Shown here piece by piece: positions 5,630 to 61,719 of a stretch of DNA of 64,000 nucleotides. This DNA comes from Candidatus Heimdallarchaeota archaeon (lineage in GTDB: Archaea; Asgardarchaeota; Heimdallarchaeia; Heimdallarchaeales; Heimdallarchaeaceae): contig DAOVER010000005.1 in assembly GCA_030668875.1 (NCBI GenBank), forward strand, positions 26,597-90,596, read 5' to 3'. The notes beneath the pieces are model-generated. The model did no database searches. It was given only the letters and a program-made list of their open reading frames with translations, and was not told where the DNA came from. The stretch's first letter is position 1. Each line of letters begins with the position of its first letter. The translations under genes were made by a program, and so were the position numbers.

Positions 5630-8368
5630 ATGAATTCCAATCTTACTAAATTTCTATCTGAAAATTCAAAAAAAGACAACCCGAATATTCAGAATCAGAC
5701 TAATAAAGTTAATAATAGTAATTTTCCAGATGATGAAGAGGATAATCATATGTTTATTGCAAATCATGGAAAACAAACTCTTGAGGATAAAGGGAAGGAT
5801 TACATTCAAATTGCCCCTGACAACCTACCACCTTCAATTCTAATAGACGTAAAATATGATGGTAAGAATGAGCAAGCATATGCTAAATTGTTCAATCTTG
5901 AGGATGGAAGAGTTTACCGTTGGTATGACAATACAAACCATCTACCGTATCTATTAACAACTTTAAGCAAAACTCAAGTTGAAGCTCAATTAAAAAATGA
6001 GAAGGAATTCATAGGTTGTGAGATAGTAAAGAGACATAATTTGTTAAATGATAAAACCATAAATTTAACTAAGGTTCTAGCAACTAATCCTTTAGCAATT
6101 GGTGGTAAAAACAACAGTTACAGAGACCAACTGTCTCCCTCTTTTGAGTCCAATATTCGCTACCATCTTAACTATATTTATGACCGCCATTTAGTTCCAG
6201 GTACCTATTATAAAATTCAAAACGGGGAGTTGATAAGTGAGGAACCTACAATTAGTTTAGAAGTACAAGAAGGTATTCTTGAAATTTTTAAGGGACAATC
6301 ACAAGAAATTGCGAGATTAGTTAAACAAAACATGCCTCTATTCTTTGCACCTATTCCTAATATCAAACGTTGTTCTGTTGATATTGAACTTCATAGTGAA
6401 CCAAACAAAATCCCCGACCCAAATGCAGCGATTGAAAAGGTAATCTCAATAGGAATTTCAGATACTGATGGGGATACTTGTGTTTATGTGCTTAATGAAG
6501 AAGGTAAGCAAATTGACAAAATTAAAGCAATTAGTAAGTTCATTGAATTCAAGGACGAAGCTGAATTGCTTAAAGCAGTTTTCAAAAAAATTGGAGAATA
6601 TCCGGTTGTTATTACATTCAATGGAGACAATTTCGACTTTCTATATTTGGATAATAGAGCAAAAAAATTAAAAATAGAAGAAACTCTGATTCCTTTCATC
6701 AGAACAAGGACTCAAGACATCTATCTTTCTCATGCAGTTCATATTGATTTGTATCGATTCTTCAGACAACCAGCCATGAGAATTTACGCATTTGGGGGGG
6801 CTTATGAAAGAGTCACCCTAAACGAGCTAGGAAAATCACTTCTTGACAAAGAAAAAGTGAAACTAGATAAAAACATTTGGGATTTAGATTTAGAAGATTT
6901 AATTACATATAATGCACAAGACGCAGAAATAACTCTTGAATTAACTACATTTAGTAATAATCAAGCAATAGAACTCATATTTATGCTGTCCAGAATCACA
7001 AAGATGCCAATAGATGATTTCACAAGATCAAGTGTAAGCATTTGGATTCAGAACTGGATGTACTTTGAACACAGACTCCTAAATTATCTAATCCCAAGAA
7101 AGCAAGATATTCTACAACTGAAAGGTGATACATCTACGGAAGCAATTATCAAAGGTAAAAAGTATCAAGGAGCGATTGTAATCGAACCGCAAGTGGGTGT
7201 ATGGTGGAATGTCTCTGTTTTAGATTTTGCATCACTTTATCCTTCAATTATTAAAACTCGTAATCTATCATATGAAACAATCAATTGTACCCATGCAGAA
7301 TGTAAAGGGAATAAAATTCCTGAGACAAGTCATTGGGTATGTAGCAAGAAGGCAGGTATAAGTTCCATGCTTGTTGGATTTATAAGAGATATTCGTGTTT
7401 ATTGGTTTAAAGATCGAGCAAAAGACCCAAGTTTAAGTGAAAGTGAGAGAAATCAAAGCAATGTGATTCAATCTTCATTAAAAGTTCTTCTCAACGCCTC
7501 ATATGGCGTATTTGGTTCGGATAATTTCGCCCTTTACTGTCCACCTGTAGCAGAATCAACTGCGGCTATAGCCAGAGAAGCTATTTCAAAAACCAAACAG
7601 TACTGTGAACAGAAATTAGGTTTAAAAGTTCTTTATGGCGATACTGACAGTATCTTTGTGCTTAAACCAACGGAAGATAACATAAAAGAACTAGAAAATT
7701 GGAGTATGAAAACTTTTCAAATTGAATTGGGAACAGATTATGTCTTTAGATACTGTGGTCTTTCAGATAGAAAAAAGAATTATTTTGGCATCACAACTAC
7801 AGGAAAACCCATAGTGAAAGGTTTAATGGGTAAAAAGAAAAATACGCCTATTCTTGCTAAACGCCCCTTTGAAAAGGCTCTAGAGATATTATCTGAGGTT
7901 CAGAATCCTGAGGAATTAGAGGTTGCTAAGAAACAAATCATAAAGATAACTAAGAAAGTTGTTCAAGAGATATCGAAGAGAGAATTTAATCTTGAGGATC
8001 TTGCTATCACTGTAACACTATCAAAAAAACTTGAACAATACGATAGTTGGACTCAACCTTTGCAAACAGCCATTCAGTTAATTGTCGCATTTCCAGAAGG
8101 TGAAAGACCATCAGTTGGGAGTTTTGTTAGTTTCATCAAAACCAAACCATTTAAAATTCAAGCAAATGACGTAAAACTGTCTGATAAAATTAACAAGAGT
8201 AGTGAGTGTTCAGTTAAGCCACTTCAATTAGCTAAGAAAATAGATGTAGATATACCTAAAATTAAAGAACTACTCAAAACAACATTAGTACAATTGTTTG
8301 ACACCATTGGAATTTCATGGGATGAGTCTGTCGAAGGACAAAAATCATTAGATAATTGGTTCAAATAG
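5630..8368 (+). CDS. polB: DNA polymerase family B
   Basis: Exo I DIE, Exo II FNGDNFDFLYL, Exo III YNAQDAE, Pol A DFASLYPSII and Pol C YGDTDS motifs. The N-terminal ~100 aa is N/Q-rich low-complexity. Confidence 0.9.
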   Translation: MNSNLTKFLSENSKKDNPNIQNQTNKVNNSNFPDDEEDNHMFIANHGKQTLEDKGKDYIQIAPDNLPPSILIDVKYDGKNEQAYAKLFNLEDGRVYRWYDNTNHLPYLLTTLSKTQVEAQLKNEKEFIGCEIVKRHNLLNDKTINLTKVLATNPLAIGGKNNSYRDQLSPSFESNIRYHLNYIYDRHLVPGTYYKIQNGELISEEPTISLEVQEGILEIFKGQSQEIARLVKQNMPLFFAPIPNIKRCSVDIELHSEPNKIPDPNAAIEKVISIGISDTDGDTCVYVLNEEGKQIDKIKAISKFIEFKDEAELLKAVFKKIGEYPVVITFNGDNFDFLYLDNRAKKLKIEETLIPFIRTRTQDIYLSHAVHIDLYRFFRQPAMRIYAFGGAYERVTLNELGKSLLDKEKVKLDKNIWDLDLEDLITYNAQDAEITLELTTFSNNQAIELIFMLSRITKMPIDDFTRSSVSIWIQNWMYFEHRLLNYLIPRKQDILQLKGDTSTEAIIKGKKYQGAIVIEPQVGVWWNVSVLDFASLYPSIIKTRNLSYETINCTHAECKGNKIPETSHWVCSKKAGISSMLVGFIRDIRVYWFKDRAKDPSLSESERNQSNVIQSSLKVLLNASYGVFGSDNFALYCPPVAESTAAIAREAISKTKQYCEQKLGLKVLYGDTDSIFVLKPTEDNIKELENWSMKTFQIELGTDYVFRYCGLSDRKKNYFGITTTGKPIVKGLMGKKKNTPILAKRPFEKALEILSEVQNPEELEVAKKQIIKITKKVVQEISKREFNLEDLAITVTLSKKLEQYDSWTQPLQTAIQLIVAFPEGERPSVGSFVSFIKTKPFKIQANDVKLSDKINKSSECSVKPLQLAKKIDVDIPKIKELLKTTLVQLFDTIGISWDESVEGQKSLDNWFK

Positions 8369-12794: not shown

Positions 12795-14111
12795 GTGTAT
12801 AGTATGAGCAAAAATAAGCAGGAGAAGACGGTTGAGCCTGAAATAAAGGAAGTTGAGGAACAATATGAAGAGCTCCTTATAGAAGAAGCTAGAAAAGAGA
12901 TGGTTGAATCAGATGAGATAGTCTCAATTTTAGAAATAAAGGATGTTCCTGGTTTAGGCAAAAAAAGTCAAGATGTCTTAGCTGATAATAATATATTAAC
13001 GATTGATCAATTGATGACAACAAGATTAATTGAATTGCAAGCAATGGGATTACAACGTGCTACGATCAAAAAAGCCCGTGCTGTAATCTCCAAATCAGTT
13101 GCAAAATACAAATATTTTAAGGAAGAATTGGGACTCGAGGATCTTCCAGGAGTTGGAAAATCAACTGCGGACATGTTACGCGAAAAGGGTTTGAATGTCT
13201 ACCTTCTTGAAACAACTCCTATTCGTGAACTAGAAGATAAGTATGGAATTACAGAAACTGCTTCAAAGAAGTATAAGGAAGGGTTAAGCGAGTTAAGAGG
13301 AGGGATTGACTTTGTTAGTGCTTTTGAAATAATGGAAAAACAAACGGACGCTCCCTCTTTCACCTATGGAATAAAGGCTTTAGATGCATTAACTACCATT
13401 GAGGAACTTGATGTATCGGGTGTGAGGCTAGGAGAAACATTAGAACTTTTTGGCCCGTTTAGATCTGGCAAATCACAGATCTGCCATCAACTTTGTGTAA
13501 CAGTACAATTGCCAACTGAATTAGGGGGGGTAGGAAAGAAAGCAGTTTTTATTGATACTGAAGGAACTTTCTCACCTAGTAGAATTAAGGCTGTTCATGC
13601 TAGATTACAGAGTGAACTCGGTTGGGAAAAGAGCTTTGAAGATGTCCTTAAGGACATAACTTATGCAAGAGCTTACAACTCAGACCATCAAATGAGTTTA
13701 GTAGAAAGACTACTTGAATTGTTCTACAATCATAAGGATGAGTATGGTTTTGTAGCTGTAGATTCAGCAACCGCACATTTCAGAGCTGAATATGCAGGCA
13801 GAGGAACGTTAGCTGAAAGACAACAAACAATCAATCATCATTTAGGCATATTAGGTAGACTAGCTGACACATACACTGTTGCTGTTGCAATAACGAATCA
13901 AGTTCAGTCAAATCCTGCAGCCTTCTTCGGTGATCCGACACAAGCTATTGGCGGGAATATTTTAGGTCATTGGGCAGTAACAAGATTTTATTTGAGAAAA
14001 TCAAAAGGTGAAAAACGAATAATAAGAATATATGATTCGCCGTATTTACCTGAATCAGAAGCAGTTTTCGCAATTACTCCAGAAGGCTGCATCGATGTAG
14101 AAGGCGGTTAA
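12795..14111 (+). CDS. radA: DNA repair and recombination protein RadA (duplicated N-terminal HhH region); likely true start is ATG at 12804
   Basis: Walker A GPFRSGKSQ within the RecA core, preceded by two HhH-like segments. Confidence 0.9.
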   Translation: MYSMSKNKQEKTVEPEIKEVEEQYEELLIEEARKEMVESDEIVSILEIKDVPGLGKKSQDVLADNNILTIDQLMTTRLIELQAMGLQRATIKKARAVISKSVAKYKYFKEELGLEDLPGVGKSTADMLREKGLNVYLLETTPIRELEDKYGITETASKKYKEGLSELRGGIDFVSAFEIMEKQTDAPSFTYGIKALDALTTIEELDVSGVRLGETLELFGPFRSGKSQICHQLCVTVQLPTELGGVGKKAVFIDTEGTFSPSRIKAVHARLQSELGWEKSFEDVLKDITYARAYNSDHQMSLVERLLELFYNHKDEYGFVAVDSATAHFRAEYAGRGTLAERQQTINHHLGILGRLADTYTVAVAITNQVQSNPAAFFGDPTQAIGGNILGHWAVTRFYLRKSKGEKRIIRIYDSPYLPESEAVFAITPEGCIDVEGG

Positions 14112-23183: not shown

Positions 23184-23268
23184 GCCAGGATATCCAAGCG
23201 GCTACGGAGATGCATTGGAAATGCATTGCCCTTGTGGCGCCGGGGTTCGAATCCCCGTCCTGGCTCCA
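23184..23268 (+). tRNA. tRNA-Ser (anticodon GGA), type II with 14-nt variable arm, CCA encoded
   Basis: Folded by hand: acceptor GCCAGGA/TCCTGGC, anticodon stem ATGCA/TGCAT with loop TTGGAAA, T-arm CGGGG-TTCGAAT-CCCCG. Confidence 0.8.
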
Positions 23269-34421: not shown

Positions 34422-36215
34422 ATGGGGTACGAAGCAGTCACTTTTCTATTATTTGCCGCTTATTTGCCGCTTGTTTGGATTCCAATCCGTTTAGCAATCA
34501 AGAAACAAACAGGATACAAAATCGCTCCTGTAGTTCTTGCTCTCTTTCTGATGAGTGTATGGATAGTCGGTTTTATCGGTCGAACAATATTAGTTACAGC
34601 TGTTGAGCATTTAATTTTCGCAGGATCGCTCTCTATTATAGCAGTAATTGTCTTCGAGATAGTTCGAGGTAAAACTAGGTTTCTTAGGAAATTCAAGACA
34701 AGAAGACGTTTGACAGGACTTATCATAATTGTTCTTATCATTGTTGTTGGTGGGAATTCATTATTGGGTATAAACAAAACCATGCAAAGTGCAAGATATT
34801 TTGAGAATATGGTAACCTATGATTCTACCAATTTGCCATTTATTGTTCTTGATGAAGTAAATGAGATAGATAAGAATATGCGACTTGTTACTAAAGAATT
34901 TGCAATAAGCAAAGCAGAACAAAACAAGGCAGTTTTTGGTTCTAACGCTGAATTAATGGAAGCTAATGTCATACTGGTTAACGATTCTATTTACTGGTGT
35001 ATGATTTACGCACCTAAAAGTTCAGCACAATTCTGGACTCCAGGACAATTTAACCATGCTTGGGGATTGATATTGGTTGAAGTTAACAACCCAAACGCTG
35101 AACCTGTAACAATTAATTTTCCAGAAGGAGAGTTTAATTATGCTGATGGTTTATGGCGCAACCACGATATTGTTCTTAAGAATTACCGCCGGGACCAAGG
35201 AGCAAAATACTGGCGTTCATATCCAGCTTGGACAGGTACTGAATGGGTTTACGTTGTTACTCGAACTACAAGAGATGTTTATGGAGCATGGTATTCCGAT
35301 GGGATAGACATTCTTGATATTAAAACAGGCGGTTTAATCACGCATTATACAGCTGAGGAATTAGACACAACCCCCAACTATATCATGCAGATTTATTCTG
35401 AAAGATTGGTTGAAGAAAAATGGATCTGGAACTGGGGTGATAAGAGAGATACGACAGCAGAAGGCAACATACGTTTCTTTAGTGGTTTTCCATATTATAG
35501 TTCAGATAGGATTGGTTTTTATGGAGACGGAGTTGAAGATATCCGTTATGTGAAATATCAAAATTCTACAATAGCTTTCTTTGCCACACATCCTTTTGAT
35601 TCTTCAGAGACTCTCGCAGGTATTGGTGTAATGACAAAAAATGATGTTACGTTTTATGACCTTAGAAAACGAGGATTCATTTCAGCTAATACAGCAGCTA
35701 CGCTAGCTGAGGGGCAGCTTACTGCACCAAATGAAGGTGGTTACATTGTTCAAATGCCAGTACCATATACACTTAACACTTCTATCGGATTGAGATTATC
35801 TTGGTTCATACCCATCTATTGGCAAAGTGGCGCCATACAAAGATTATCTCACGTCTGTGTTATTGATGCCTTAGACTCAAGTTATGTAGCTATAGCTGAA
35901 GCAGAGGGACTATCGGGTTCTCAAGTAGTAAAAGAAGCACGCTTACAATTCAAGTCCTTTTTCACAAGTGAAATTGTCGAAGACCAATATGAAATTGCAC
36001 AAATAGAAGATGTTGGAAGCTACGTAGAAAATGGCGATAGTATTTTTGTTTATCAATTGAATGATAGTCGAACAATACGTTGTTCACAAGATTATCTGAA
36101 TGCAACTCATTGGAATCAAGTTGTTCTAGCGGATATAGGAGACGATATACGATATACATTCACTGAAGATGACGAAGGAATATTTTGGGCAACAGAGTTC
36201 TTTATTTTAACTTAA
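34422..36215 (+). CDS. membrane protein with large extracytoplasmic domain
   Basis: Four N-terminal hydrophobic helices, then a ~480-aa soluble domain rich in W/Y/N. Confidence 0.4.
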   Translation: MGYEAVTFLLFAAYLPLVWIPIRLAIKKQTGYKIAPVVLALFLMSVWIVGFIGRTILVTAVEHLIFAGSLSIIAVIVFEIVRGKTRFLRKFKTRRRLTGLIIIVLIIVVGGNSLLGINKTMQSARYFENMVTYDSTNLPFIVLDEVNEIDKNMRLVTKEFAISKAEQNKAVFGSNAELMEANVILVNDSIYWCMIYAPKSSAQFWTPGQFNHAWGLILVEVNNPNAEPVTINFPEGEFNYADGLWRNHDIVLKNYRRDQGAKYWRSYPAWTGTEWVYVVTRTTRDVYGAWYSDGIDILDIKTGGLITHYTAEELDTTPNYIMQIYSERLVEEKWIWNWGDKRDTTAEGNIRFFSGFPYYSSDRIGFYGDGVEDIRYVKYQNSTIAFFATHPFDSSETLAGIGVMTKNDVTFYDLRKRGFISANTAATLAEGQLTAPNEGGYIVQMPVPYTLNTSIGLRLSWFIPIYWQSGAIQRLSHVCVIDALDSSYVAIAEAEGLSGSQVVKEARLQFKSFFTSEIVEDQYEIAQIEDVGSYVENGDSIFVYQLNDSRTIRCSQDYLNATHWNQVVLADIGDDIRYTFTEDDEGIFWATEFFILT

Positions 36216-38121: not shown

Positions 38122-38212
38122 AAGTATGATTATAATAATGTTATTAATCTATCAAAATCATCTGATTTGTTAACCAGAAGTCTTTTTAGATAACGCTATT
38201 TGTGTTGTAACA

Positions 38213-38833
38213 ATGAAAGTCTTTATTCTAATAGGGTTGCAAATAAGTGGCAAATCATCTCATGGCTATAGATTAAGAGAAGAAGAAGGAATACCAATGG
38301 TAGAGACCGGGCACGCGGTTTATCATGAGCTGAAACGATTGAATTTAGAAGTTAATCATGAGAATAGTAGCAAAGTTATAATTGGTTTGTTAGCCCAAGA
38401 CCCTACAGCTTTTACTCGTACAATACTAGATTATGAAAAAAAAACCTATGAGGGAGCTAAGTGTCTTATTTTAAATGGCGTAAAATCACCAGCAGAAGTT
38501 GAGTATACACAGAGTCGATTCGGTAAAGAGAACGTAACAGTCTTTGGATTTCATTGCAGTCAACAGACACGTTTTAGCAGAGTAACTAACCCTGATAGGT
38601 TCGAGGTATCGGGTCAATTTCACGAAAAAACACAAGAAGATCAAGATTTGGCAAAATGGGAGAACTTCAAGAGTAGAGATTTAAGAGAGATTGGCTTAGG
38701 GATAGGAAATGCTCTCGCTTTTGCGAATGAAATAATCTGTACAGAGGATAATTTTTGGCCATATAATTCATTTGAGAGTTCATATAAACAGTTTCATAAG
38801 CATATTTTTGATAGACTAACAAAGTCTACTTAG
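38213..38833 (+). CDS. P-loop nucleotide kinase-like protein (UPF0200-like)
   Basis: LIGLQISGKSS P-loop, conserved R.DLREIGLGIG. Confidence 0.4.
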   Translation: MKVFILIGLQISGKSSHGYRLREEEGIPMVETGHAVYHELKRLNLEVNHENSSKVIIGLLAQDPTAFTRTILDYEKKTYEGAKCLILNGVKSPAEVEYTQSRFGKENVTVFGFHCSQQTRFSRVTNPDRFEVSGQFHEKTQEDQDLAKWENFKSRDLREIGLGIGNALAFANEIICTEDNFWPYNSFESSYKQFHKHIFDRLTKST

Positions 38834-38854: not shown

Positions 38855-41389
38855 CTATTTTTTTGGAGAGCTTGGATAAGTTCCGATTGGCATTAGCACT
38901 CGCTTTACACTAGAGACTATACCGTGTTCCTTTTCAGGAAGAGTTATTGCATCAATCTGTGCTTCACCTAATGCAACCAATTCATTCTTCAAGGTATAAA
39001 TCGCTACCATGTCGCCTGCTTTGAATTCTTCTGAATACCTTGAAACACCTGGTAAAGCTAATGGGGCACCATGACAGATAGTATTAACCGCACTGTCTTT
39101 GATAATAACTTGTGGTATATGTCTCACCCCATATTCCATAGGTAGAATAATGTTTCGTAAGGGATTTTCATCTTTTTCTTCTCTATACCATGCAAAAGCA
39201 TCATATAAATCATGGAGAGTGGATAAGAAATCATTTTCCGAAAATGGTCCAGAGCGCGTTCGTCTAAGTTCCTTCATATGAGCGCCACACGATAAACTTT
39301 GTCCAATATCATGGCAATTAGAAGACACAAAACCTGTTTCAATGAGAAAATTATGAGTTTTTGGTACAGTCATATCATAAACATAACCAGTACTTTGGAC
39401 ATTCTCAATTGATTCTATTTTTTCAATAATGAAATCATCCAGTTCTGGTAACATTATGTGTGTAGAAGCAGTTTTGTAGAACCCTCGCGTCATAGGGATA
39501 TTTTCTTTTAAAATTCTATCCAAATTTCCACCCATTATTTTTTTCAATTCTGTTTTATGGGAAATTAAATAATTCGCAAAATGAAAACCAATATGATATT
39601 TATCTCCATATTCATGATCAGAATTCAGTTCTTCGAACTCAGTGAATTTTCTGATTTTCTCTGGATGGTTAGAACCAATTTCATTGATGAATTTCAACTC
39701 TGCACCTATCGTACCAACAGACACTATATACATTGTAGTGATATAATTCTTAAAATTAACTTCTCTTGAAAAAATAGTATTTTCAATTTCTAATTTAAGT
39801 AGTAATTTATGAAGTATTATTGCTTCACTTCTGTTAACCGTGTATAAAGAAATACGAGATTTAACACTATGAGAATATGTTTTTATTTGTACAGACCCAT
39901 CCCCATCAAAATAACCTCGTAAGTAGGAACAAATCAATTTAGGTTCAAGTTGGAGCAAAGGAGAAAAATCAGCATTCTTTTTTGGGCTTCTTATTCCTAA
40001 AGATGCTGCTATAGTAGCAAGAAGAGAGTTTGTAAGAGATACACCCCAAACACCATTTTTATCTTGATTAACCGAATAATGTGAATTTGGGAATAATTCT
40101 TTGTAAATTTCAACATACTTATCAATTAGTTCCTTATTTGTATTATTAAAAATTAATCTTGTATAACGTACTGTATTTTTCTCTTTTGAATTATTTCCAT
40201 CTGAAGCAATTAATCCTAAAAGATAAAATAAAGATTCATTTAGCTCTCTTAGCTTAATGATTTGACCTTTTACTTGCTTAAATCTATAAATTTGTTCTTT
40301 AACATCTTCATATATTCCAGCTAGTTTAAGATGTTTTATTTTTATCGAGTAAGAAGAGTTTGAAACAAATGGCTGCCTACTAACATCTAGTTTTCTGCTC
40401 ATTTCTCTAATACTACCATATTTTTTAATGAAGGCGTTTTTACATTTTTCCTTTATTTCATCTTGTTCTATAAGGTACTCATCATCCAAAAGATCTGACA
40501 CAATTAGTTTTTTACTAGTTAAGTTTGGTTTAAAACTTTTAACTAAAAAATCACCAACTCTTAATTTTCTAGCTTCAGTCATATTATAACCAACATCTGT
40601 AGATTTCAACATTTCATGGTCTGGTGTAATAATTATTGAAATACCAGTTTTCATTTTTAGTTTAATTAAAACTGGAGGGGAAGGGATGGTTTGAACTGCA
40701 GATGGATCTTTTTGATCTATTTTTCCATCAACAAAAGAAAAGATTGTTTTTGGACTTTCAACGAAATCTTTAGCTGAAACTGATCCTTCAGCTGTAAGAA
40801 TCTGAGTATTAGGATGTAAACAATATTTTCTAACATAAAATCCTGCTTGAGAGCTTATCCTAAAAAGAACTTCTCTTTCCCTTATATCAAGAATCTCTGA
40901 ATTATAGATGGTTCGAATTCTTAATACTCTTTTTACACTTGCCCTTAATGGGGGTCTTTGATACAAATCACCAACATAATCACCAACAATAGATCTTATT
41001 CTTTCTTCATCAATATCGGCGTGTAATCGCATATTTCCAACGTATTCCTTTCCAGCGAGGAGAAGTGTATCCAATATTCGAGTTGCTTTTCCTAAAGCCG
41101 TAGGAAGAACACCGGTTACCTGTGGGTCCAAGGTTCCAGAATGACCCGCTTTTGGAATGCCAAGAATCTTTTTTACATAACTAACTACTTCATGGCTAGT
41201 TGGATTAGGAGGTTTGTCCAAGTTGATGATACCATAATTCAATAATTCTGCAATTGTTCGATTTGAAGGCTTTTTTCCCCATTTAAAATCAGTTGTATCT
41301 CTGGAAAGTATCTTTAAGGGGTACTTATTGTCATCAAATGATAACTTTGGGGTGGAAAAAACTAATGTCATGATATCATCACGGAGCAC
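38855..41389 (-). CDS. cbf5: tRNA pseudouridine synthase Cbf5/TruB interrupted by a large intein
   Basis: TruB motif GHSGTLDP, C-terminal PUA domain, and the conserved Y.R..CHDIG split by 502 aa. Confidence 0.85.
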   Translation of the reverse strand: MLRDDIMTLVFSTPKLSFDDNKYPLKILSRDTTDFKWGKKPSNRTIAELLNYGIINLDKPPNPTSHEVVSYVKKILGIPKAGHSGTLDPQVTGVLPTALGKATRILDTLLLAGKEYVGNMRLHADIDEERIRSIVGDYVGDLYQRPPLRASVKRVLRIRTIYNSEILDIREREVLFRISSQAGFYVRKYCLHPNTQILTAEGSVSAKDFVESPKTIFSFVDGKIDQKDPSAVQTIPSPPVLIKLKMKTGISIIITPDHEMLKSTDVGYNMTEARKLRVGDFLVKSFKPNLTSKKLIVSDLLDDEYLIEQDEIKEKCKNAFIKKYGSIREMSRKLDVSRQPFVSNSSYSIKIKHLKLAGIYEDVKEQIYRFKQVKGQIIKLRELNESLFYLLGLIASDGNNSKEKNTVRYTRLIFNNTNKELIDKYVEIYKELFPNSHYSVNQDKNGVWGVSLTNSLLATIAASLGIRSPKKNADFSPLLQLEPKLICSYLRGYFDGDGSVQIKTYSHSVKSRISLYTVNRSEAIILHKLLLKLEIENTIFSREVNFKNYITTMYIVSVGTIGAELKFINEIGSNHPEKIRKFTEFEELNSDHEYGDKYHIGFHFANYLISHKTELKKIMGGNLDRILKENIPMTRGFYKTASTHIMLPELDDFIIEKIESIENVQSTGYVYDMTVPKTHNFLIETGFVSSNCHDIGQSLSCGAHMKELRRTRSGPFSENDFLSTLHDLYDAFAWYREEKDENPLRNIILPMEYGVRHIPQVIIKDSAVNTICHGAPLALPGVSRYSEEFKAGDMVAIYTLKNELVALGEAQIDAITLPEKEHGIVSSVKRVLMPIGTYPSSPKK
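39317..40822 (-). other. intein (502 aa) with LAGLIDADG homing-endonuclease domain inside cbf5
   Basis: Starts with Cys (CLHPNTQIL), ends ...GFVSSN before the +1 Cys of CHDIG. Carries LLGLIASDGN and LRGYFDGDGS LAGLIDADG blocks. Confidence 0.7.
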
Positions 41390-44240: not shown

Positions 44241-45695
44241 GTGAATTACATGGTTTCAAAGTTCTTGATGCTATTCAAACCGTTTCAACGTTTTACCTTT
44301 GAGGTAAAGAAGCCAGCAAGAAAACCTTCTTTTAAAAGAAAGTTAGCTTGGACCTTCGGAATCCTAGCCCTCTATTTAGCTATGCTAAATATTCCTATTT
44401 TCGGTATACCTGAATCAGGTGGAACCGATCCCTTCTTCGCCATGAGGGCAATATTAGCTTCACAAAGAGGAAGCTTAGCAGAATTAGGTATAGGACCTAT
44501 TGTAACTGCTGGTTTGATTATGCAGTTACTTGTGGGATCACAAATTATCAAAGTTGATTTTACTAATCCTGAAGAACGTGCTCTATACACCGGAACACAA
44601 AAAATACTTGCTATATTGATGACCCTATTCGAAGCTTTAGCATATATTCTTGGTGGAGCTTATGGAGAGTTAGGTTTCCAAGCACAAATGATTGTATTAT
44701 TGCAATTAATTGTTGCAGGTTTTACCATTCTTCTTATGGATGAAGTTATCCAGAAAGGTTATGGACTTGGAAGCGGTATTAGTTTATTCATTGCTGCAAG
44801 TGTTTCATATACTATCTTTGATGGCATGTTCAGTTTAACGCAAGAAAGAATTGGAGGTTTTGATTGGTACAGAGGTTGCGTTCTCGCATTCTTTCAAGGT
44901 ATCTTCAAAGAAAATCCAGACATACTAACACCACTCAGTAGACCTGGTAGAACCCCCGATGTAATTGGTTTACTGGCAACAATAGTTGTTTTTGCAATGG
45001 TTATCTATGTAGACTCTATGAAAATTGAGATACCTGTCCAACACAGCCAATATAAGATGCCAGCCAGATATCCAATAAAATTCTTATATACGTCAAATAT
45101 CCCTGTAATCCTTGTAAGCGCCTTATTTGCAAACATCTACTTCGTTTCAAACCTAATGCACAACTCTTGGAGTGATATAACAACGGGTTATCAAGGATTC
45201 TTGGTCGACTTTTTCGGTAGATGGGATACGATAGAAGGCACGGAACAACTAACTCCAGTTTCGGGGCTAGCAGCTTTTACAACGGCACCGTATGGACCTG
45301 AACAAATTGCGGAGCAACCGTGGCATGCCCTAGTGTATTTACTATTAATGGTTGCACTTTGTGGTATCTTCTCGCGTATTTGGATAGATACGGCTGGGAT
45401 GAGTTCAAAAAATGTTGCGAAACAACTGTTAGATGCAAATATGCAAATACCTGGTTTTAGGCGTAATCCAAGGATTGTAGAAAGATATCTAGAAAGATAC
45501 ATTCCTACAGCAGCCTGGCTCGGAGGTTTCTTTATAGGTGTTCTAGCAGCAGTAGCGGACTTTCTGGGAGCTCTTGGTACGGGTACTGGTATTCTGTTAA
45601 CAACGGGTATTCTCCGTCAGTACTATGAAATCTTCGCTAGTGAACAAATTAGTGAAACTGTTCCAGCTTTAGCTGGAATGTTAGGAATAAAATAA
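44241..45695 (+). CDS. secY: preprotein translocase SecY (canonical copy)
   Basis: NIPIFGIP...GIGPIVTAGLIMQLLVGSQI plug/TM2 region, 10 TM segments. Confidence 0.9.
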   Translation: MNYMVSKFLMLFKPFQRFTFEVKKPARKPSFKRKLAWTFGILALYLAMLNIPIFGIPESGGTDPFFAMRAILASQRGSLAELGIGPIVTAGLIMQLLVGSQIIKVDFTNPEERALYTGTQKILAILMTLFEALAYILGGAYGELGFQAQMIVLLQLIVAGFTILLMDEVIQKGYGLGSGISLFIAASVSYTIFDGMFSLTQERIGGFDWYRGCVLAFFQGIFKENPDILTPLSRPGRTPDVIGLLATIVVFAMVIYVDSMKIEIPVQHSQYKMPARYPIKFLYTSNIPVILVSALFANIYFVSNLMHNSWSDITTGYQGFLVDFFGRWDTIEGTEQLTPVSGLAAFTTAPYGPEQIAEQPWHALVYLLLMVALCGIFSRIWIDTAGMSSKNVAKQLLDANMQIPGFRRNPRIVERYLERYIPTAAWLGGFFIGVLAAVADFLGALGTGTGILLTTGILRQYYEIFASEQISETVPALAGMLGIK

Positions 45696-50271: not shown

Positions 50272-51651
50272 ATGGAATCGAAGAAATTGGACTTATTTGA
50301 TTCAATGTCTTCAAGAGTAAGTATCCCATTTAATCTTAAGGTAATTTATACTTCTTTGTTTGCTATTCTTTATCTCATATTTCTAAATATACCCATTTTC
50401 GGCGTGCCTAGTTCAGGAGGAACTGATCCTTTTTTTGCTTTCAGAGTCATTATGGCATCTCAGAGAGGAAGTTTGGCAGAGTTTGGTATTTTTCCGCTTG
50501 TATACGCATCTTTCATTATGCATGTATTGGTGGGGTTAGGAATTTACAAAATGGATTTCACACAAGCAGAGAAGAGAAAGAAGTTTTCGATTATAGTTAC
50601 TATTCTGGGGTTGTTTTTCTCTCTCACATCATCTTTATGTTATGTAATTTTTGGTGCTTATGGAGAGATAAGTGTTGATCAAGGTTTTATAATCATTCCT
50701 CAATTATTGCTTGCTAGTACTCTTATAATAATAATTGACTATTTCATGAGAAAAGGGTACGGATTGAGCTCTGGTGTAAGCTTGTTTATAGTAGTCAGTG
50801 TTTCACGAACTATCTTTGATGGTATGTTCAGTTTAAGTCAATTAAGAGTTGGAGGTTTTGATTGGTACAGAGGTTGTATTCTCGCATTCATTCAAGGTAT
50901 CTTTAAAGAAGACCCAGATATACTGACACCACTCATCAGACCGGGTTTAACACCTGATTTTCTGGGATTCATTTTAGCAATTATAGTGTTTGGAATGACG
51001 ATATTCTTTGTATCCTTTACCATAAAGAGACCATTCTATCAGAGAGATCAAATTACAAAATCATCGATGACAGCTCAATCATTATACAACTATTCTAATT
51101 CCGTAGTAATAACCAGTTCATTTTTTGCAAATATTTCCTTCGTTTCAAATATGATGTTTAATACATGGAGCTCATTTTCAACGGGATTTAGAAGTTTGTT
51201 GGTTAGTTTCTTCGGTAGATGGGAGACGATAGAAGGCACGAATCAGCTAGCTCCAGTTTCGGGGCTAGCGGCTTTTACAACCCCTCCATATGGGGTTGAA
51301 CAAATTACACAACATCCGTGGAATACTTCGGTGTATTTTCTATTTATGATTGTATATAGTATCCTTATGTCTAGATTATTAGTAAAAACATCAGGAAAGG
51401 AAAATGTAAGTATTCTAAAAGGAACAGACATATTTAATCAAGAAAAATATGAAGTCACTAATTTCCCTTTAGCATTATTAGCTGGTTTTTTCATGGGGTT
51501 TTTAGCAGGGTTTTTTAACATCATTTCTCCATTGGGAACAGGAGTAGGTATTCTAATAACAACGTGCATACTGAAACAACTCTTGGACATCATTTCCCAT
51601 GAAAAATCCAAATGGAATGAATCAAGAAAAAATACGGAAATTAATAAATAA
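50272..51651 (+). CDS. divergent SecY paralog (SecY2-like), antisense to the flanking r-protein genes
   Basis: NIPIFGVPSSGGTDPFFAFRVIMASQRGSLAEFGI aligns with canonical SecY, but the plug/TM2 region is divergent (FPLVYASFIMHVLVG). 459 aa. Confidence 0.75.
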   Translation: MESKKLDLFDSMSSRVSIPFNLKVIYTSLFAILYLIFLNIPIFGVPSSGGTDPFFAFRVIMASQRGSLAEFGIFPLVYASFIMHVLVGLGIYKMDFTQAEKRKKFSIIVTILGLFFSLTSSLCYVIFGAYGEISVDQGFIIIPQLLLASTLIIIIDYFMRKGYGLSSGVSLFIVVSVSRTIFDGMFSLSQLRVGGFDWYRGCILAFIQGIFKEDPDILTPLIRPGLTPDFLGFILAIIVFGMTIFFVSFTIKRPFYQRDQITKSSMTAQSLYNYSNSVVITSSFFANISFVSNMMFNTWSSFSTGFRSLLVSFFGRWETIEGTNQLAPVSGLAAFTTPPYGVEQITQHPWNTSVYFLFMIVYSILMSRLLVKTSGKENVSILKGTDIFNQEKYEVTNFPLALLAGFFMGFLAGFFNIISPLGTGVGILITTCILKQLLDIISHEKSKWNESRKNTEINK

Positions 51652-58739: not shown

Positions 58740-59261
58740 TTGATTCATTGTATTACTTGGATATTCAATTTGAGATGCAGCAAGGGACAAAAATTTATTA
58801 TAATTGTCTTTCCCTTTTTACTCATGCCTCCTTCCAATGATTCTGAAGAACAAGTTAAAATTGGTGCAGATTTGTTATTGAAGGGTTGGGTGATGCTCAA
58901 TCGCGCATGTCCTACCTGTTATTTACCACTTTACAAAAAACAAGATAGAGTAGTTTGTGTGAAATGTAAGCAAGATTATGTTTTAGTTGATTCACCCTCG
59001 GAAATACCACAACAACAGAGAAATAATGCTCAACAGAAAGTGATCTCAGCTCCATATAGTAATTCTTCACCCCAATCCAATCTATCTTCACTTGACTTTT
59101 CGTCACTCCCTCCAGCATTGGTTGATACAGCTAAAATCTTACTTGAGAAAATAGAAATGCTCAATGTCCAATTAAAGGAAACAACTGATCCTAAAGAAAT
59201 CACGGATATTTCTAACTCTATTCGTTCTCTTGTTGATTCTATTCGTTCTCTGACTTCTTAG
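58740..59261 (+). CDS. zinc-ribbon protein resembling the Sjogren-syndrome/scleroderma autoantigen-1 (p27) family; true start possibly the internal Met near 58824
   Basis: LLLKGWVMLNRACPTCYLPLYKK...CVKC resembles the LL.GA.ML...CP.C..PLF motif. Confidence 0.35.
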   Translation: MIHCITWIFNLRCSKGQKFIIIVFPFLLMPPSNDSEEQVKIGADLLLKGWVMLNRACPTCYLPLYKKQDRVVCVKCKQDYVLVDSPSEIPQQQRNNAQQKVISAPYSNSSPQSNLSSLDFSSLPPALVDTAKILLEKIEMLNVQLKETTDPKEITDISNSIRSLVDSIRSLTS

Positions 59262-61719
59262 AATCTTGTTGAGGTTCAGGCCTTAGACTATCCAACTCCT
59301 CTTTTATTCCACTTAATTCTTTCTCTGCAGTTAGTTCATTATAATCAGCATAGATAAAATCGATAATGTCAGAAGCAATTTTTTCTCCTACTCCTCTTAT
59401 CTCAAAGAAATCTTCTCTGTTTGCAGTTACAATTCCTCTGAACGACCCAAAGTGTTTCAGTAATCGTCGAGAGATTTTATGCTCAATGTGAGGTAGTGCA
59501 GAAACTGCTTCTTCTAGTTGGATTTGTAATCCCAAGCCCTTTCTTTTACCGATAGATAATCTTCTTTTTCTTTCAACTTGTTCTCTTTTTGCAAAAGCAT
59601 ATAGCATTTCAGCTGTTTCTCTTTGATTCTTCGTATGGATTATAGGAATTCGAAAATCAGTAATCAAAGAGGTTAGTGCTCCAGATAAAGCATGAGGATG
59701 CAAGGTTGAACCATGAAGATTAAACTCTCCTTCAATTAATATAACTGGTTTAGCACAATTTTCTACAAGGATTTTTGTTTGAGAGAATAAACGTTTATCC
59801 ATAATAGATTTAACAAAATCATCTTGTGTCTTTCGCTCTACTATAACTTGGTCTGAACAGATATAATCGCCAATTTCTAATCTTTCGAAACCAAGGACAA
59901 CATCTTTTCTCATTAATTCTTTAATAACTGTAGAGTTCCTTTCCCTACTATCACAAATTATTTTTATTTCCCCTTCATCTGCTAATTCTTTGCTCTCATC
60001 AACGTTCTCGTCTTCAATAACTGACAGTGCTTCTACCGCTTCCTCTTTTTCTTCAATTTCTGTTTTTTTGGATGATTCTGTTTCCGCTTCTTTCAGAAAA
60101 TCAAGAATGCCTTTTTGTTGCTCCTTTTTCTTCATGGCTTTTACTGAGGGTGATTTTTCTAATTGTTTCACAATTTTCTTCATTTTCTGAGCCTGTCTCT
60201 TCGACGCCCACATATAAGCTACATCCCTAGTTCCTTCAGCTATCAACATTATTACCTTGCCCTCCTTTCTTCTACCTGTACGACCTTTTCTCTGAATCAA
60301 TCGTATAGCACTAGGAACGGCATCATAAAAAATAACAAGCTCACATTCACCAATATCTAATCCTTCTTCGGCAACACTTGTTGAAACAAGAACATTGTAT
60401 GTTCCATCACGGAATTCTTGCATAATTTCGATCTGTTTTTTCTGAGATAGCCCTTTTTCACCTTTCATTGATGATTGACCCACAAACCAGTGCGCATTTA
60501 TTCCTTCAATTTTATTTATTTCTTTACTGATTATTTTGGCAGCGACTCTGAAATGGGAGAAGATGAGTATTCTATTGTTAGCATTGTTTTCTACTTCTTC
60601 TTGGACTATTTCTTTCAATCGCTCTACTTTGGGATGAATTACCTTTTCCTCTTGTAATATGTGAACAGCTTCAACAACTTTTCTCATTTCATCAGAAAAC
60701 ATCATGTTCTTTAGAGCTCGACTCCCTCTTCCAAACTTAATTTCATTAATATGACCTTCTAGATATTTATTAAGGGAAGGAACACCTTGAGTCTCTATTA
60801 ATTCAATGGCGTGAGATATCCTAATCGAGTTCCCAACAAGAGCCATTGCTTTAAAAAAATCTGTTCTATCTTCATCAGGAGAACTAGAAAATTTCTCATT
60901 TACTCTTCCCCGTAATTTCAATAATTCTCGTCTAGGATTATTTCTAGGAACTGCTGAGTTAATAATGCCGAGCTCCTTTAATCCTTCTAAGATAATTTTA
61001 AAGAAGTCATTTAGTGTCGAGATTATCACACTAAATGCTTCAGAAAGAGGGATGATTTCCCAATTTTCTTGAATCTCGTGGATATATTGTTTAACATCAT
61101 CAGAGCTTTCATCTCTCATTTCCACATTGAAAGCCTTCAAATTTTCTTGTACCTCTTCAATCCTTTCAATATTAGCTCCTGGACTTGCAGTGATGCCAAG
61201 CAGAAGAGGATTTTTTGCCTTCAAGTTATATTGTTCAGCAATGAAAACGTAACTATGGTCACCAACAGCCTTATGAGCTTCATCTAGGCACATAAAAACG
61301 AAATCTTCAAGTTTTACTCTACGTTGGATGATATCGTTTTGAATAGTTTGAGGTGTACAGATGAATACTTGTCCCTCTTCCCAGATTTGTTTTCTTGTAC
61401 TGGGATCAGTTTGACCAGAGATTTGTATGATTTTATCTGAATCAATATTTAAAGAAGATCTAGTAGTTTGTTCATGTTGTTCAAGTAGTGGTTTAGTTGG
61501 AGCGCAAAATACAATTTTTCCCTCGGGAAATTTCTGAATGCGATGTGCAGCAATCATGATAAAAAGGATTGTTTTACCCAAACCCGTTGGTAAAATAACC
61601 AAAGAATTTTCCTTAACGCATGAAGCAAATAATGTCTGCTGGTACAATCTCGCTTCAATTTTATCAGGTTTAATCAGAGGATGGTTAATATATTCTGCTT
61701 GATCCATTGGAAACCACAA
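59239..61719 (-). CDS. hef: Hef-type helicase-nuclease (DEAH helicase + ERCC4/XPF nuclease + HhH2)
   Basis: LPTGLGKT, DEAH, a C-terminal ERCC4 pattern (ICDSRER...ERKT) and a terminal HhH. Confidence 0.85.
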   Translation of the reverse strand: MWFPMDQAEYINHPLIKPDKIEARLYQQTLFASCVKENSLVILPTGLGKTILFIMIAAHRIQKFPEGKIVFCAPTKPLLEQHEQTTRSSLNIDSDKIIQISGQTDPSTRKQIWEEGQVFICTPQTIQNDIIQRRVKLEDFVFMCLDEAHKAVGDHSYVFIAEQYNLKAKNPLLLGITASPGANIERIEEVQENLKAFNVEMRDESSDDVKQYIHEIQENWEIIPLSEAFSVIISTLNDFFKIILEGLKELGIINSAVPRNNPRRELLKLRGRVNEKFSSSPDEDRTDFFKAMALVGNSIRISHAIELIETQGVPSLNKYLEGHINEIKFGRGSRALKNMMFSDEMRKVVEAVHILQEEKVIHPKVERLKEIVQEEVENNANNRILIFSHFRVAAKIISKEINKIEGINAHWFVGQSSMKGEKGLSQKKQIEIMQEFRDGTYNVLVSTSVAEEGLDIGECELVIFYDAVPSAIRLIQRKGRTGRRKEGKVIMLIAEGTRDVAYMWASKRQAQKMKKIVKQLEKSPSVKAMKKKEQQKGILDFLKEAETESSKKTEIEEKEEAVEALSVIEDENVDESKELADEGEIKIICDSRERNSTVIKELMRKDVVLGFERLEIGDYICSDQVIVERKTQDDFVKSIMDKRLFSQTKILVENCAKPVILIEGEFNLHGSTLHPHALSGALTSLITDFRIPIIHTKNQRETAEMLYAFAKREQVERKRRLSIGKRKGLGLQIQLEEAVSALPHIEHKISRRLLKHFGSFRGIVTANREDFFEIRGVGEKIASDIIDFIYADYNELTAEKELSGIKEELDSLRPEPQQDSKKSENE

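Follow-up and report, generated by a model that had tools for sequence, protein, structure and literature searches.

The Cbf5 gene of this Heimdall-group Asgard archaeon very probably carries a canonical class 1 intein of the "large" kind, a HINT domain with a two-motif LAGLIDADG endonuclease and two helical domains, which would be removed by protein splicing and propagated by homing. The element lies in a stretch of 64,000 nucleotides of contig DAOVER010000005.1 (positions 26,597 to 90,596), called the window here, to which all positions below refer. An earlier note, made from the sequence without database searches, had placed at 38855-41389 a Cbf5/TruB pseudouridine synthase interrupted by an intein. 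Translation of this segment gives one uninterrupted ORF of 844 codons starting with GTG. The coordinates of the note were correct, and the strand, which it had left out, is the minus strand, the plus-strand translation having stops throughout. The features of the locus are the following:

38855-41389, minus strand: Cbf5 precursor ORF, 844 codons from the GTG at 41389; TAG stop at 38855-38857
40823-41389, minus strand: N-extein, with DKCLD and the TruB_N catalytic domain, ending in the conserved GFYVRKY
39317-40822, minus strand: intein, 502 aa (CLHPNTQ...GFVSSN), delimited by blastn, family alignment and colinearity of the spliced gene
40532-40822, minus strand: HINT-N, intein aa 1-97; block A with Cys1, block B with TPDH at aa 66-69 (40616-40627)
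40238-40531, minus strand: helical middle domain, intein aa 98-195, with the helix-turn-helix-like segment KKYGSIREMSRKL
39668-40237, minus strand: LAGLIDADG endonuclease core, intein aa 196-385; motif 1 LLGLIASDG (40196-40222), motif 2 LRGYFDGDG (39896-39922)
39443-39667, minus strand: second helical domain, intein aa 386-460, between endonuclease core and HINT-C; model helices at 387-453
39317-39442, minus strand: HINT-C, intein aa 461-502; block F YVYDMTVPKTHNFLIE, block G TGFVSSN
38855-39316, minus strand: C-extein, with the +1 Cys first (CHDIGQSLSCGAHM), TruB_C_2, PUA and the stop codon

The Cbf5 host gene and the limits of the insert

By its sequence the host protein is Cbf5, the H/ACA RNP pseudouridine synthase of the TruB family. 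All four Pfam domains scored above their cut-offs, DKCLD (ORF residues 21-69) and TruB_N (73-186) in the N-extein, TruB_C_2 (692-755) and PUA (759-832) in the C-extein, and the NCBIfam Cbf5 equivalogs NF003280 (399.5 bits, cut-off 242) and TIGR00425 (398.3 bits, cut-off 238) matched in two stretches each. Solved Cbf5 structures in the PDB match at an E value of 2.5e-95, the alignment being broken at query 190/688, which corresponds to chain 184/180; residues 26-184 of 2aus_C aligned to query 32-190 in the N-extein, and residues 184-332 of 3lwo_A to query 692-840 in the C-extein. The catalytic Asp is ORF residue 88, within HSGTLDPQVTG, and aligns with the same motif (G-T-L-D-P) of the solved structures. 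The exteins are under clear purifying selection. An ATG at 41369-41371, residue 7 of the GTG ORF, is likely the true start of the precursor, which would then have 838 aa, since the database copy (838 aa) and the intein-free relatives of 336 aa begin there.

The insert of 502 aa was delimited exactly by the earlier note and spans ORF residues 190-691 (184-685 from the ATG). The peptides on which that reading was based, GFYVRKY / CLHPNTQ...GFVSSN / CHDIGQSLSCGAHM, are all present in the minus-strand translation, so that the insert begins with Cys, ends with Asn and is followed by a +1 Cys (...SSN/C), and both LAGLIDADG blocks, LLGLIASDGN and LRGYFDGDGS, are found in the ORF. The comparison with intein HMMs that had been suggested gave matches above the curated cut-offs for Intein_splicing (5.9e-16), LAGLIDADG_3 (2.3e-13), TIGR01445 intein_Nterm (ORF 190-261) and TIGR01443 intein_Cterm (ORF 669-692), the LAGLIDADG model PF14528 matching in two stretches with 50.7 bits (cut-off 22.5). 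Together with the Cbf5 matches, these scores lie well outside chance expectation. Blocks A, B, F and G, on whose presence the note had made its reading depend, were all located in the insert. Structure modelling predicted a homing-endonuclease intein fold with high confidence, with beta strands at aa 7-96, and the endonuclease core is predicted to adopt the pseudo-dimeric alpha-beta-beta-alpha-beta-beta-alpha fold of the monomeric two-motif type. The helical domain at aa 98-195 is a putative accessory DNA-binding domain, and that at aa 386-460 may, by position only, be equated with the "stirrup" domain of PI-PfuI and PI-PkoII. No other 1.5-kb stretch of the window has a GC content as low as that of the intein (29.2%; window mean 35.0 +/- 2.1), although its amino-acid composition, rich in Lys, Asn and Ile, could partly explain this rather than a foreign origin; GC3 is 17% in the intein and 25-27% in the exteins.

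Removal of residues 190-691, a test also proposed beforehand, restores a contiguous Cbf5 gene of 1011 nt without indels. Four alleles without the intein, at syntenic loci (L083-L086), are equally long; the spliced gene is 88.9% identical to them in nucleotides and 92-93% in amino acids, and the junction peptide, SQAGFYVRKY/CHDIGQSLSC, is identical in the spliced gene and in the empty alleles. Profile and structure alignments of Cbf5 likewise resume at the adjacent residue across the insert, and in blastn against the intein-free L083 positions 39319-40819 of the window form the sole gap within the Cbf5 gene. The neighbourhood is syntenic with that of the intein-free relatives, with 87-90% nucleotide identity over 14 kb, and no target duplication was found at the insert. 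Neither was there a sign of a co-conversion tract: in windows of 60 nt the identity of the exteins to the empty allele varied between 0.82 and 0.95, and the junction was unremarkable. The empty alleles already have the +1 Cys, as do 85 of the 120 intein-free Cbf5 relatives, and judged from these sequences this nucleophile is a native Cbf5 residue.

The insertion point is three residues past the Arg in G-x-Y-[IV]-R, a conserved motif that published work places in the active site of TruB/Cbf5, and the site is therefore presumed to be catalytically critical. The description of the site as highly conserved was borne out, G-T-Y-x-R-K upstream and C-x-D-x-G downstream being at least 90% conserved. 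Other kinds of element (a group I or group II intron, an IS element, a fusion of two genes) were considered and rejected, the insert being translated in frame with both flanks, containing blocks A, B, F and G and lacking a target duplication. Rfam searches at gathering thresholds gave no RNA families within the window, and when the family HMM was run against the six-frame ORFs of at least 50 aa in the window, for a second intein or a free-standing relative, only the Cbf5 ORF was matched.

The intein family, its class and the proposed splicing pathway

Around 105 homologous full-length inteins (counted as sequence clusters), all of 491-545 aa, occupy the identical site in Cbf5, and no mini-intein was found among them. 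Their hosts are Heimdall-group, Hodarchaeal, Promethearchaeotal, Woese-/Nanoarchaeotal, Bathy- and Hadarchaeotal sequences, and the closed chromosome CP084167.1 is one of the more than 100 sequences with the same architecture. The proteins are deposited under names such as "LAGLIDADG family homing endonuclease", "PUA domain-containing protein" or "hypothetical protein". In an alignment of 14 family sequences, C1, T66, D68 and H69 are invariant, as are V481, D483, T485, H490, N491, F492, E495, S501 and N502 in the C-terminal part; most of the residues invariant in this alignment, including Cys1, T66, H69 and N502, stay so in 95 sequences. The LAGLIDADG motifs are invariant in the 14-sequence alignment and at least 90% conserved in that of 95. 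Every full-length member ends in ...SSN/C.

The traits of class 1 inteins are present, namely a HINT domain with blocks A, B, F and G, Cys as residue 1 (ORF Cys190), T66-P-D-H69, and Asn502 followed by the +1 Cys. The penultimate His (G:6) typical of the class is the exception, Ser501 being found in its place. In block F, Asp483 corresponds to F:4 and His490 to F:13, and in block G Ser501 is penultimate and Asn502 terminal. The two LAGLIDADG helices of the endonuclease terminate in putative catalytic acids, D208 (LLGLIASD208G) and D308 (LRGYFDGD308G). Class 3 inteins, which form their branched intermediate on the Cys of block F, are defined by the WCT motif (Cys at F:4, Trp at B:12, Thr at G:5), usually without Cys1 or Ser1, and this class was discarded because Asp483 occupies F:4 and the intein begins with Cys. 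Class 2 was discarded as well, since its members lack the residue-1 nucleophile and Cys1 is present here.

From these residues we infer that the Cbf5 intein carries out protein splicing and DNA cleavage. The precursor (838 or 844 aa, depending on the start) would fold and undergo an N-S acyl shift at Cys1, helped by Thr66 and His69 of block B, and the thioester would be attacked by the +1 Cys to give a branched intermediate. Cyclisation of Asn502 would then free the intein (around 58 kDa), and an S-N shift would leave a normal Cbf5 of 336 aa with the native ...YVRKY-CHDIG... sequence, the predicted ligated junction peptide being KYCHDIGQSLSCGAHMK. A penultimate His normally helps Asn cyclisation, and because the family has Ser where His is usual, this step would be aided by Asp483 and His490 of block F, which could possibly compensate for Ser at G:6. 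Inteins with a residue other than His at G:6 make up around 5% of functional inteins (PMC4031507). The penultimate Ser, which had been pointed out beforehand for this copy, is not peculiar to it: it is invariant in the approximately 105 family members and extends to more distant relatives in other host proteins. This family-wide invariance indicates that Ser is a trait of the family and not a sign of decay.

Mobility and alternative readings

On the extein neighbour-joining tree, intein-containing and intein-free alleles are intermingled. The window allele is nested among the intein-free P0122-P0125, and sister pairs consist of one allele with and one without the element (P0004/P0136 and P0005/P0160, the intein-containing one given first). 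A homing element would be expected to show such a patchy distribution, discordant with phylogeny. In pairwise comparisons inside the Heimdall clade the inteins are less alike than the exteins (75 vs 88%; around 60 vs 70%), but between phyla they are more alike (52-57 vs 46-51%); for P0098 and P0005 identity is only 44% in the inteins against 72% in the exteins. The scattered presence and absence, the GC content, the lowest in the window, and the higher identity of inteins than of exteins between phyla all point to homing and horizontal transfer. In the proposed cycle the endonuclease would cleave Cbf5 alleles that lack the intein, around GGATTTTATGTGAGAAAGTAT/TGTCACGATATTGGACAAAG, and the intein would be copied in during repair; we infer that the element spreads, or has spread, in this way.

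Whether the endonuclease of the window copy remains active appears to us a roughly even question. At the protein level this copy and its nearest intein relative share 75% identity. The copy departs from family positions conserved at 90% or more at 6-7 of around 101 sites, the median for other members being 2. Among these departures, D148S and K150Q fall in the HTH-like segment, and K224I, F236Y and F300Y in the endonuclease core; D148S, K150Q and K224I, among others, could reflect relaxed selection on DNA recognition. It is plausible, if somewhat short of probable, that the intein still splices while its endonuclease is already inactive, so that the element would be fixed in this lineage and at the start of the decay that follows in the homing cycle; with the same tentativeness, it could persist solely because imprecise loss would destroy an essential enzyme. 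The concentration of the changes in the HTH segment and the endonuclease core agrees with this, as does the fact that the closest relatives by extein are intein-free, which gives no sign of the window intein currently sweeping. On the other hand, both LAGLIDADG motifs, with the acidic residues D208 and D308, are preserved, as is the conserved G-S-N-H-P-x-K segment, the element has full family length without any frameshift, stop or deletion, and the conservative Y/F changes are unlikely to be inactivating.

Conditional splicing has been documented in other archaeal inteins (reviewed in PMC4031507), and a Cys1/Cys+1 disulfide, or a temperature or redox step, might hold Cbf5 inactive and gate H/ACA-guided pseudouridylation. 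The intein adjoins active-site residues, so the precursor should be inactive, both cysteines are present and invariant, and the full element is kept in all of the approximately 105 members across several archaeal phyla. We nevertheless consider regulation of this kind quite improbable, as relatives with exteins 92-93% identical live without the intein, the patchiness is the pattern of a selfish element, and the sequence has no specific sign of a switch, the +1 Cys being merely the residue native to Cbf5. The broader proposal, that the element is not just parasitic and works as a post-translational switch, is highly improbable; here conditional splicing, for instance through a redox-sensitive Cys1/Cys+1 pair with a family-fixed, Ser-based Asn cyclisation, would control ribosome biogenesis as well as H/ACA-guided pseudouridylation in the Asgard and DPANN groups.

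There is a very slim chance that the insertion is dead, with splicing lost and Cbf5 reduced to a pseudogene or to a fusion of altered function. The missing penultimate His would be in line with such a loss, but the invariance of Ser in around 105 homologues and in distant relatives is unlike decay, all other catalytic residues are invariant, the exteins are under purifying selection with a junction identical to that of functional-looking empty alleles, and a frame of 844 codons is intact in a genome of 35% GC. An assembly or binning artefact, in which Cbf5 and an endonuclease gene of foreign origin would have been put together in a chimeric contig, might be suspected from an intein GC clearly below the rest of the window, but has practically no chance of being correct given that the identical 838-aa protein (P0001) and its neighbourhood are found in the NCBI contig (104 kb) and in two independent Logan assemblies (SRR26080963, SRR26080962), that the insertion is precisely in frame at codon boundaries, and that over 100 independent sequences, CP084167.1 among them, are built in the same way.

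Relation to known inteins and significance

The closest sequence relatives of the Cbf5 intein outside Cbf5 are inteins in V-type ATPase subunit B (L022-L028, from Acetothermia, Armatimonadetes, Rubrobacteraceae and Woesearchaeota), in a Caldarchaeum protein (L021) and in a TPP enzyme (P0120). Across all 502 residues they are 25-29% identical to the Cbf5 intein, with their domains arranged in the same order and with ...[VI]SN/C and the penultimate Ser at the C-terminal junction, but are located in other host genes and sites (e.g. TDMTNY/C...SN/CEALRE) and are far more divergent from the Cbf5 inteins than these are among themselves. Among characterised elements, the Thermococcales VMA inteins (TliVMA, PDB 7qss/7qsu; PhoVMA, 7qst) are hosted by V-ATPase subunit A and are only 16-22% identical; the Cbf5 intein exceeds them in size, with the HTH-like helical domain at aa 98-195 as an addition, and its penultimate residue is Ser instead of the usual His. 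PI-PkoII of Thermococcus kodakarensis (PDB 2cw7/2cw8; 410 residues align) and PI-PfuI (1dq3), both with 16-20% identity, reside in DNA polymerase B and ribonucleotide reductase, respectively, that is, in replication and nucleotide metabolism, and their endonuclease activity has been established experimentally, whereas that of the Cbf5 intein is predicted. The yeast PI-SceI (VMA1) is eukaryotic, has a penultimate His and a beta-rich DNA-recognition region, unlike the putative helical one of the Cbf5 intein. The functional inteins without His at G:6 are scattered individuals with various substitutions that splice (PMC4031507), whereas in the Cbf5 family Ser is fixed and widely distributed.

Inteins are strongly concentrated in proteins of replication, repair and nucleotide metabolism. 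To our knowledge, InBase has no Cbf5 or TruB entry. The main-text tables of archaeal host proteins in a 2016 survey include no pseudouridine synthase, and the survey describes core transcription and translation components as holding few inteins (PMC4760082). Full-text literature searches with Cbf5, TruB, pseudouridine synthase, Heimdallarchaeum and Asgard archaea found no description of an intein in Cbf5/TruB. This, together with the absence from those main-text tables, indicates that the Cbf5 intein is probably an uncatalogued intein allele.

We regard the element as a real intein of an ordinary sort, one of a textbook class of mobile elements in a host and at a site that have apparently not been described before, and it leaves the understanding of inteins unchanged. 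It is nonetheless common in environmental archaea, with around 105 clusters, and as Cbf5 is in use as a marker in phylogenetics, masking of the intein is advisable. With its family-wide penultimate Ser, this natural collection of inteins lends itself to the study of how Asn cyclises when G:6 is not His, which is of use in protein engineering, and the presence/absence polymorphism among genomes around 89% identical, combined with the similarity of inteins across phyla, provides a means of tracing gene flow between Asgard and DPANN archaea.

The interrupted Cbf5 gene and its empty alleles

A Cbf5 gene with a 502-aa intein at 38855-41389 had been proposed in the earlier note, and this was borne out: the interval is a single frame of 844 uninterrupted codons, read from the minus strand (stop codons abound in the plus-strand translation), all the peptides quoted are found in it, and the insert spans Cys190 to Asn691 as numbered from the GTG.

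39317-40822, minus strand, intein, 502 aa (ORF residues Cys190-Asn691)

An ATG six codons further on, at 41371, is more likely to be the true start: P0001, the database copy of the precursor (838 aa, 100% identical), starts there, as do the 336-aa intein-free relatives at the equivalent position. The profile matches leave no doubt that the frame has two components. The Cbf5 equivalog models NF003280 (399.5 bits, cut-off 242) and TIGR00425 (398.3 bits, cut-off 238) each match the precursor in two stretches, the Pfam domains DKCLD, TruB_N, TruB_C_2 and PUA are found, and Intein_splicing, LAGLIDADG_3 (in two stretches), intein_Nterm and intein_Cterm each exceed their cut-offs. Solved Cbf5 structures are also matched (E ~1e-95), with an alignment that breaks at query residue 190 and restarts at 692, both at residue 184 of the chain, and the insert therefore lies between two residues that are neighbours in Cbf5.

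A search with the spliced extein (host-protein) sequence identified P0122-P0125 (336 aa, 92-93% identity) as the closest intein-free Cbf5 proteins, followed by matches 77% and then around 70% identical, several of them source-named Heimdallarchaeota. The gene order L30, L15, oxidoreductase, SecY, methyltransferase, EMC3-like, L34e, Cmk, L14e, Cbf5, 206-aa ORF, HAD, PfkB is common to the window and to the contigs of P0124/P0125 (NCBI assemblies GCA_018238545.1, GCA_018238645.1 and GCA_018238585.1, and one JGI metagenome). With one of these intein-free relatives, locus L083, the window is colinear over 14 kb at 87-90% DNA identity, and the sole gap within the Cbf5 gene (window 39319-40819) is the intein. 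Its removal restores a contiguous Cbf5, as had been anticipated: without the 1506 nt the gene measures 1011 nt, the length of the four empty (intein-free) alleles, to which it is 88.9% identical with zero indels. The junction-spanning peptide SQAGFYVRKY/CHDIGQSLSC (the slash marks the insertion point) is the same in the spliced gene and the empty alleles, so that the +1 Cys is a native Cbf5 residue. Among the intein-free proteins P0122-P0241, the residue equivalent to +1 (window 39314-39316) is C in 85 of 120, V in 15, A in 9, I in 6 and T in 5, and V, A or I may be found even in the Heimdall-type context GFYVRKY. Empty alleles with no nucleophile there may be refractory to productive invasion, because splicing could not be supported.

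Apart from the intein, the only indel in the 14-kb syntenic block is a 237-aa ORF with no Pfam/NCBIfam match, which in relatives with ~89% nucleotide identity separates the 206-aa ORF from the HAD hydrolase gene and which the window lacks (window 38122-38212 versus L083 7671-8419, by DNA comparison). Other features of the window are as follows.

2559-3911, minus strand, 450-aa ORF, no Pfam/NCBIfam family at the thresholds used
5630-8368, plus strand, family-B DNA polymerase, 912 aa, without intein
12795-14111, plus strand, RadA/Rad51 homologue, 438 aa, with extra N-terminal helix-hairpin-helix matches (IMS_HHH)
23184-23268, plus strand, tRNA-Ser(GGA), single
34422-36215, plus strand, 597-aa ORF, no Pfam/NCBIfam family at the thresholds used
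38213-38833, plus strand, 206-aa ORF, no Pfam/NCBIfam family at the thresholds used
44241-45695, plus strand, canonical SecY (NF006341, 423.6 bits, cut-off 300)
50272-51651, plus strand, divergent SecY paralogue (190 bits, under the cut-off; only the plug domain detected by Pfam)
59239-61719, minus strand, Hef-type helicase-ERCC4 nuclease, 826 aa

The two SecY-like genes are less than 7 kb apart, and the divergent one adjoins the ribosomal-protein cluster. The 597-aa and 206-aa ORFs are kept in syntenic relatives, the latter, which adjoins Cbf5, beginning with a P-loop-like GLQISGKSS. RadA is a classical intein host; the homologue found here exceeds the usual length and contains no intein. No Rfam family reached the gathering score across the whole 64 kb.

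Splicing residues and state of the intein

Of the 126 proteins retrieved with the intein alone as query, almost every one was a Cbf5 of ~800-850 aa. The ~105 full-length members share one insertion site, G-T-Y-[IV]-R-K-x / C ... S-S-N / C-H-D-x-G, with inteins of 491-545 aa and no mini-intein seen among them. In an alignment of 14 inteins spanning 33-75% identity, the blocks A, B, F and G expected from the earlier reading are represented by invariant residues, namely Cys1, T66-x-D68-H69 (block B), V481, D483, T485, H490, N491, F492 and E495 (block F) and S501-N502 (block G), as are both LAGLIDADG blocks (G-L-x-A-S-D-G at 203-209 and G-Y-F-D-G-D-G at 303-309); most of these residues stay invariant in 95 sequences. 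The penultimate Ser in place of His, also pointed out previously, is a fixed character of the family and of its distant relatives. This position (G:6) is not His in ~5% of functional inteins, and catalysis in inteins is aided by Asp at F:4 and His at F:13 (review PMC4031507); the equivalents here, D483 and H490, are both invariant in the family.

The AlphaFold2 model built on the 95-sequence alignment (pLDDT 94.5, pTM 0.92) predicts five parts.

Intein aa 1-97, HINT-N (splicing domain)
Intein aa 98-195, helical domain
Intein aa 196-385, LAGLIDADG core, motif helices 196-208 and 294-308
Intein aa 386-460, second helical domain
Intein aa 461-502, HINT-C

By the standard class-1 pathway, splicing would start with an N-S shift at Cys1 aided by Thr66 and His69, followed by trans-thioesterification onto Cys+1, cyclisation of Asn502 with the assistance of Asp483 and His490, His G:6 being absent, and an S-N shift yielding native Cbf5. 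The frame is intact and every catalytic motif is present, although the window intein deviates at 6-7 of ~101 family positions conserved at 90% or more, the median of other members being 2.

39317-40822, minus strand, deviating intein residues 59, 148, 150, 183, 224, 236, 300

In the HTH-like domain, D148S and K150Q fall within a conserved segment, L-D-R-K; K224I is located in the endonuclease core. Such changes may mean that selection on DNA recognition has begun to relax, or that specificity has shifted. Given the intact motifs and these deviations, the intein is very likely competent for splicing, while the chances that its endonuclease is currently active are about even.

Distribution and probable transfer

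Spread of the element would involve cleavage of empty alleles by the endonuclease, followed by gene conversion. In a neighbour-joining tree of exteins, intein-containing (+) and intein-free (-) alleles are interspersed inside the Heimdall clade: the allele of the window branches among P0122-P0125(-), whose sister is P0002(+), and near sister pairs of mixed state are formed by P0004(+)/P0136(-) and P0005(+)/P0160(-). Inside this clade intein identity is lower than extein identity (75 vs 88%; ~60 vs 70%), whereas in comparisons with Woese-/Nanoarchaeota-type and Hodarchaeal alleles the intein is the more similar of the two (52-57% vs 46-51%); between P0098 and P0005, exteins are 72% and inteins only 44% identical. 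Transfer between lineages would be expected to leave such discordance, assessed here from distances only. The GC content of the intein (29.2% vs 35.0 +/- 2.1) is also lower than that of any other 1.5-kb stretch in the window, and its GC3 is 17% vs 25-27% in the exteins. Among species-representative genomes, the closed chromosome of Ca. Heimdallarchaeum endolithica carries a family member (61% identity), and others are present in Promethearchaeota, Woesearchaeota, Nanoarchaeota, Bathyarchaeia and Hadarchaeota, as well as in MAGs with the label Methanosarcinales or Thermoplasmatales.

More distant relatives (loci L022-L028 and L021, proteins P0120/P0121), 25-29% identical over the full length, share the domain order, the SN/C end and the penultimate Ser. 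Their hosts are V-type ATPase subunit B (TDMTNY/C...SN/CEALRE), both in Woesearchaeota and in the bacterial groups Acetothermia, Armatimonadetes and Rubrobacteraceae, as well as a TPP-dependent enzyme and a protein of Caldarchaeum. Judging from these bacterial and archaeal hosts, the clade crosses domains. Scanning 1.84 billion representatives without filters gave 528 proteins at E <= 0.001 and 20 at E <= 1e-30; the nine best matches (E <= 1e-56) cover all the Cbf5 inteins of that table identified earlier except the fragment P0119 (E 7.8e-34), and long proteins with several matching stretches enter from ~E 1e-38.

Novelty and meaning

Full-text literature searches on inteins in Cbf5/TruB pseudouridine synthases and in Heimdallarchaeum or Asgard archaea turned up no account of this element. 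The main-text host tables of a 2016 survey include no pseudouridine synthase, and the survey reports few inteins in core components of translation and transcription (PMC4760082). Host and site thus appear to be new. More than 100 Cbf5-intein proteins are already in public databases, so the sequence is undescribed rather than new; they are named inconsistently, as 'LAGLIDADG family homing endonuclease', 'PUA domain-containing protein', 'hypothetical protein' or 'tRNA pseudouridine(55) synthase' (P0007, P0008, P0014, P0021, P0022, P0025 and others). NCBIfam 'exception' models for intein-containing proteins exist for Tes and RtcB, with none for Cbf5.

The interpretation of the insert as an intein is supported. 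By its sequence, the element is a class-1 intein with a LAGLIDADG homing endonuclease, and all the defining features that can be tested in silico are present save the penultimate His, which is not obligatory. It is genuine, well preserved and ordinary in type, and it is the host gene that is unusual. The insertion point is three residues past the Arg in G-x-Y-[IV]-R, a motif that lines the active site in published TruB/Cbf5 structures; because of this proximity, the unspliced precursor should be inactive and precise splicing obligatory, the classic situation for intein persistence.
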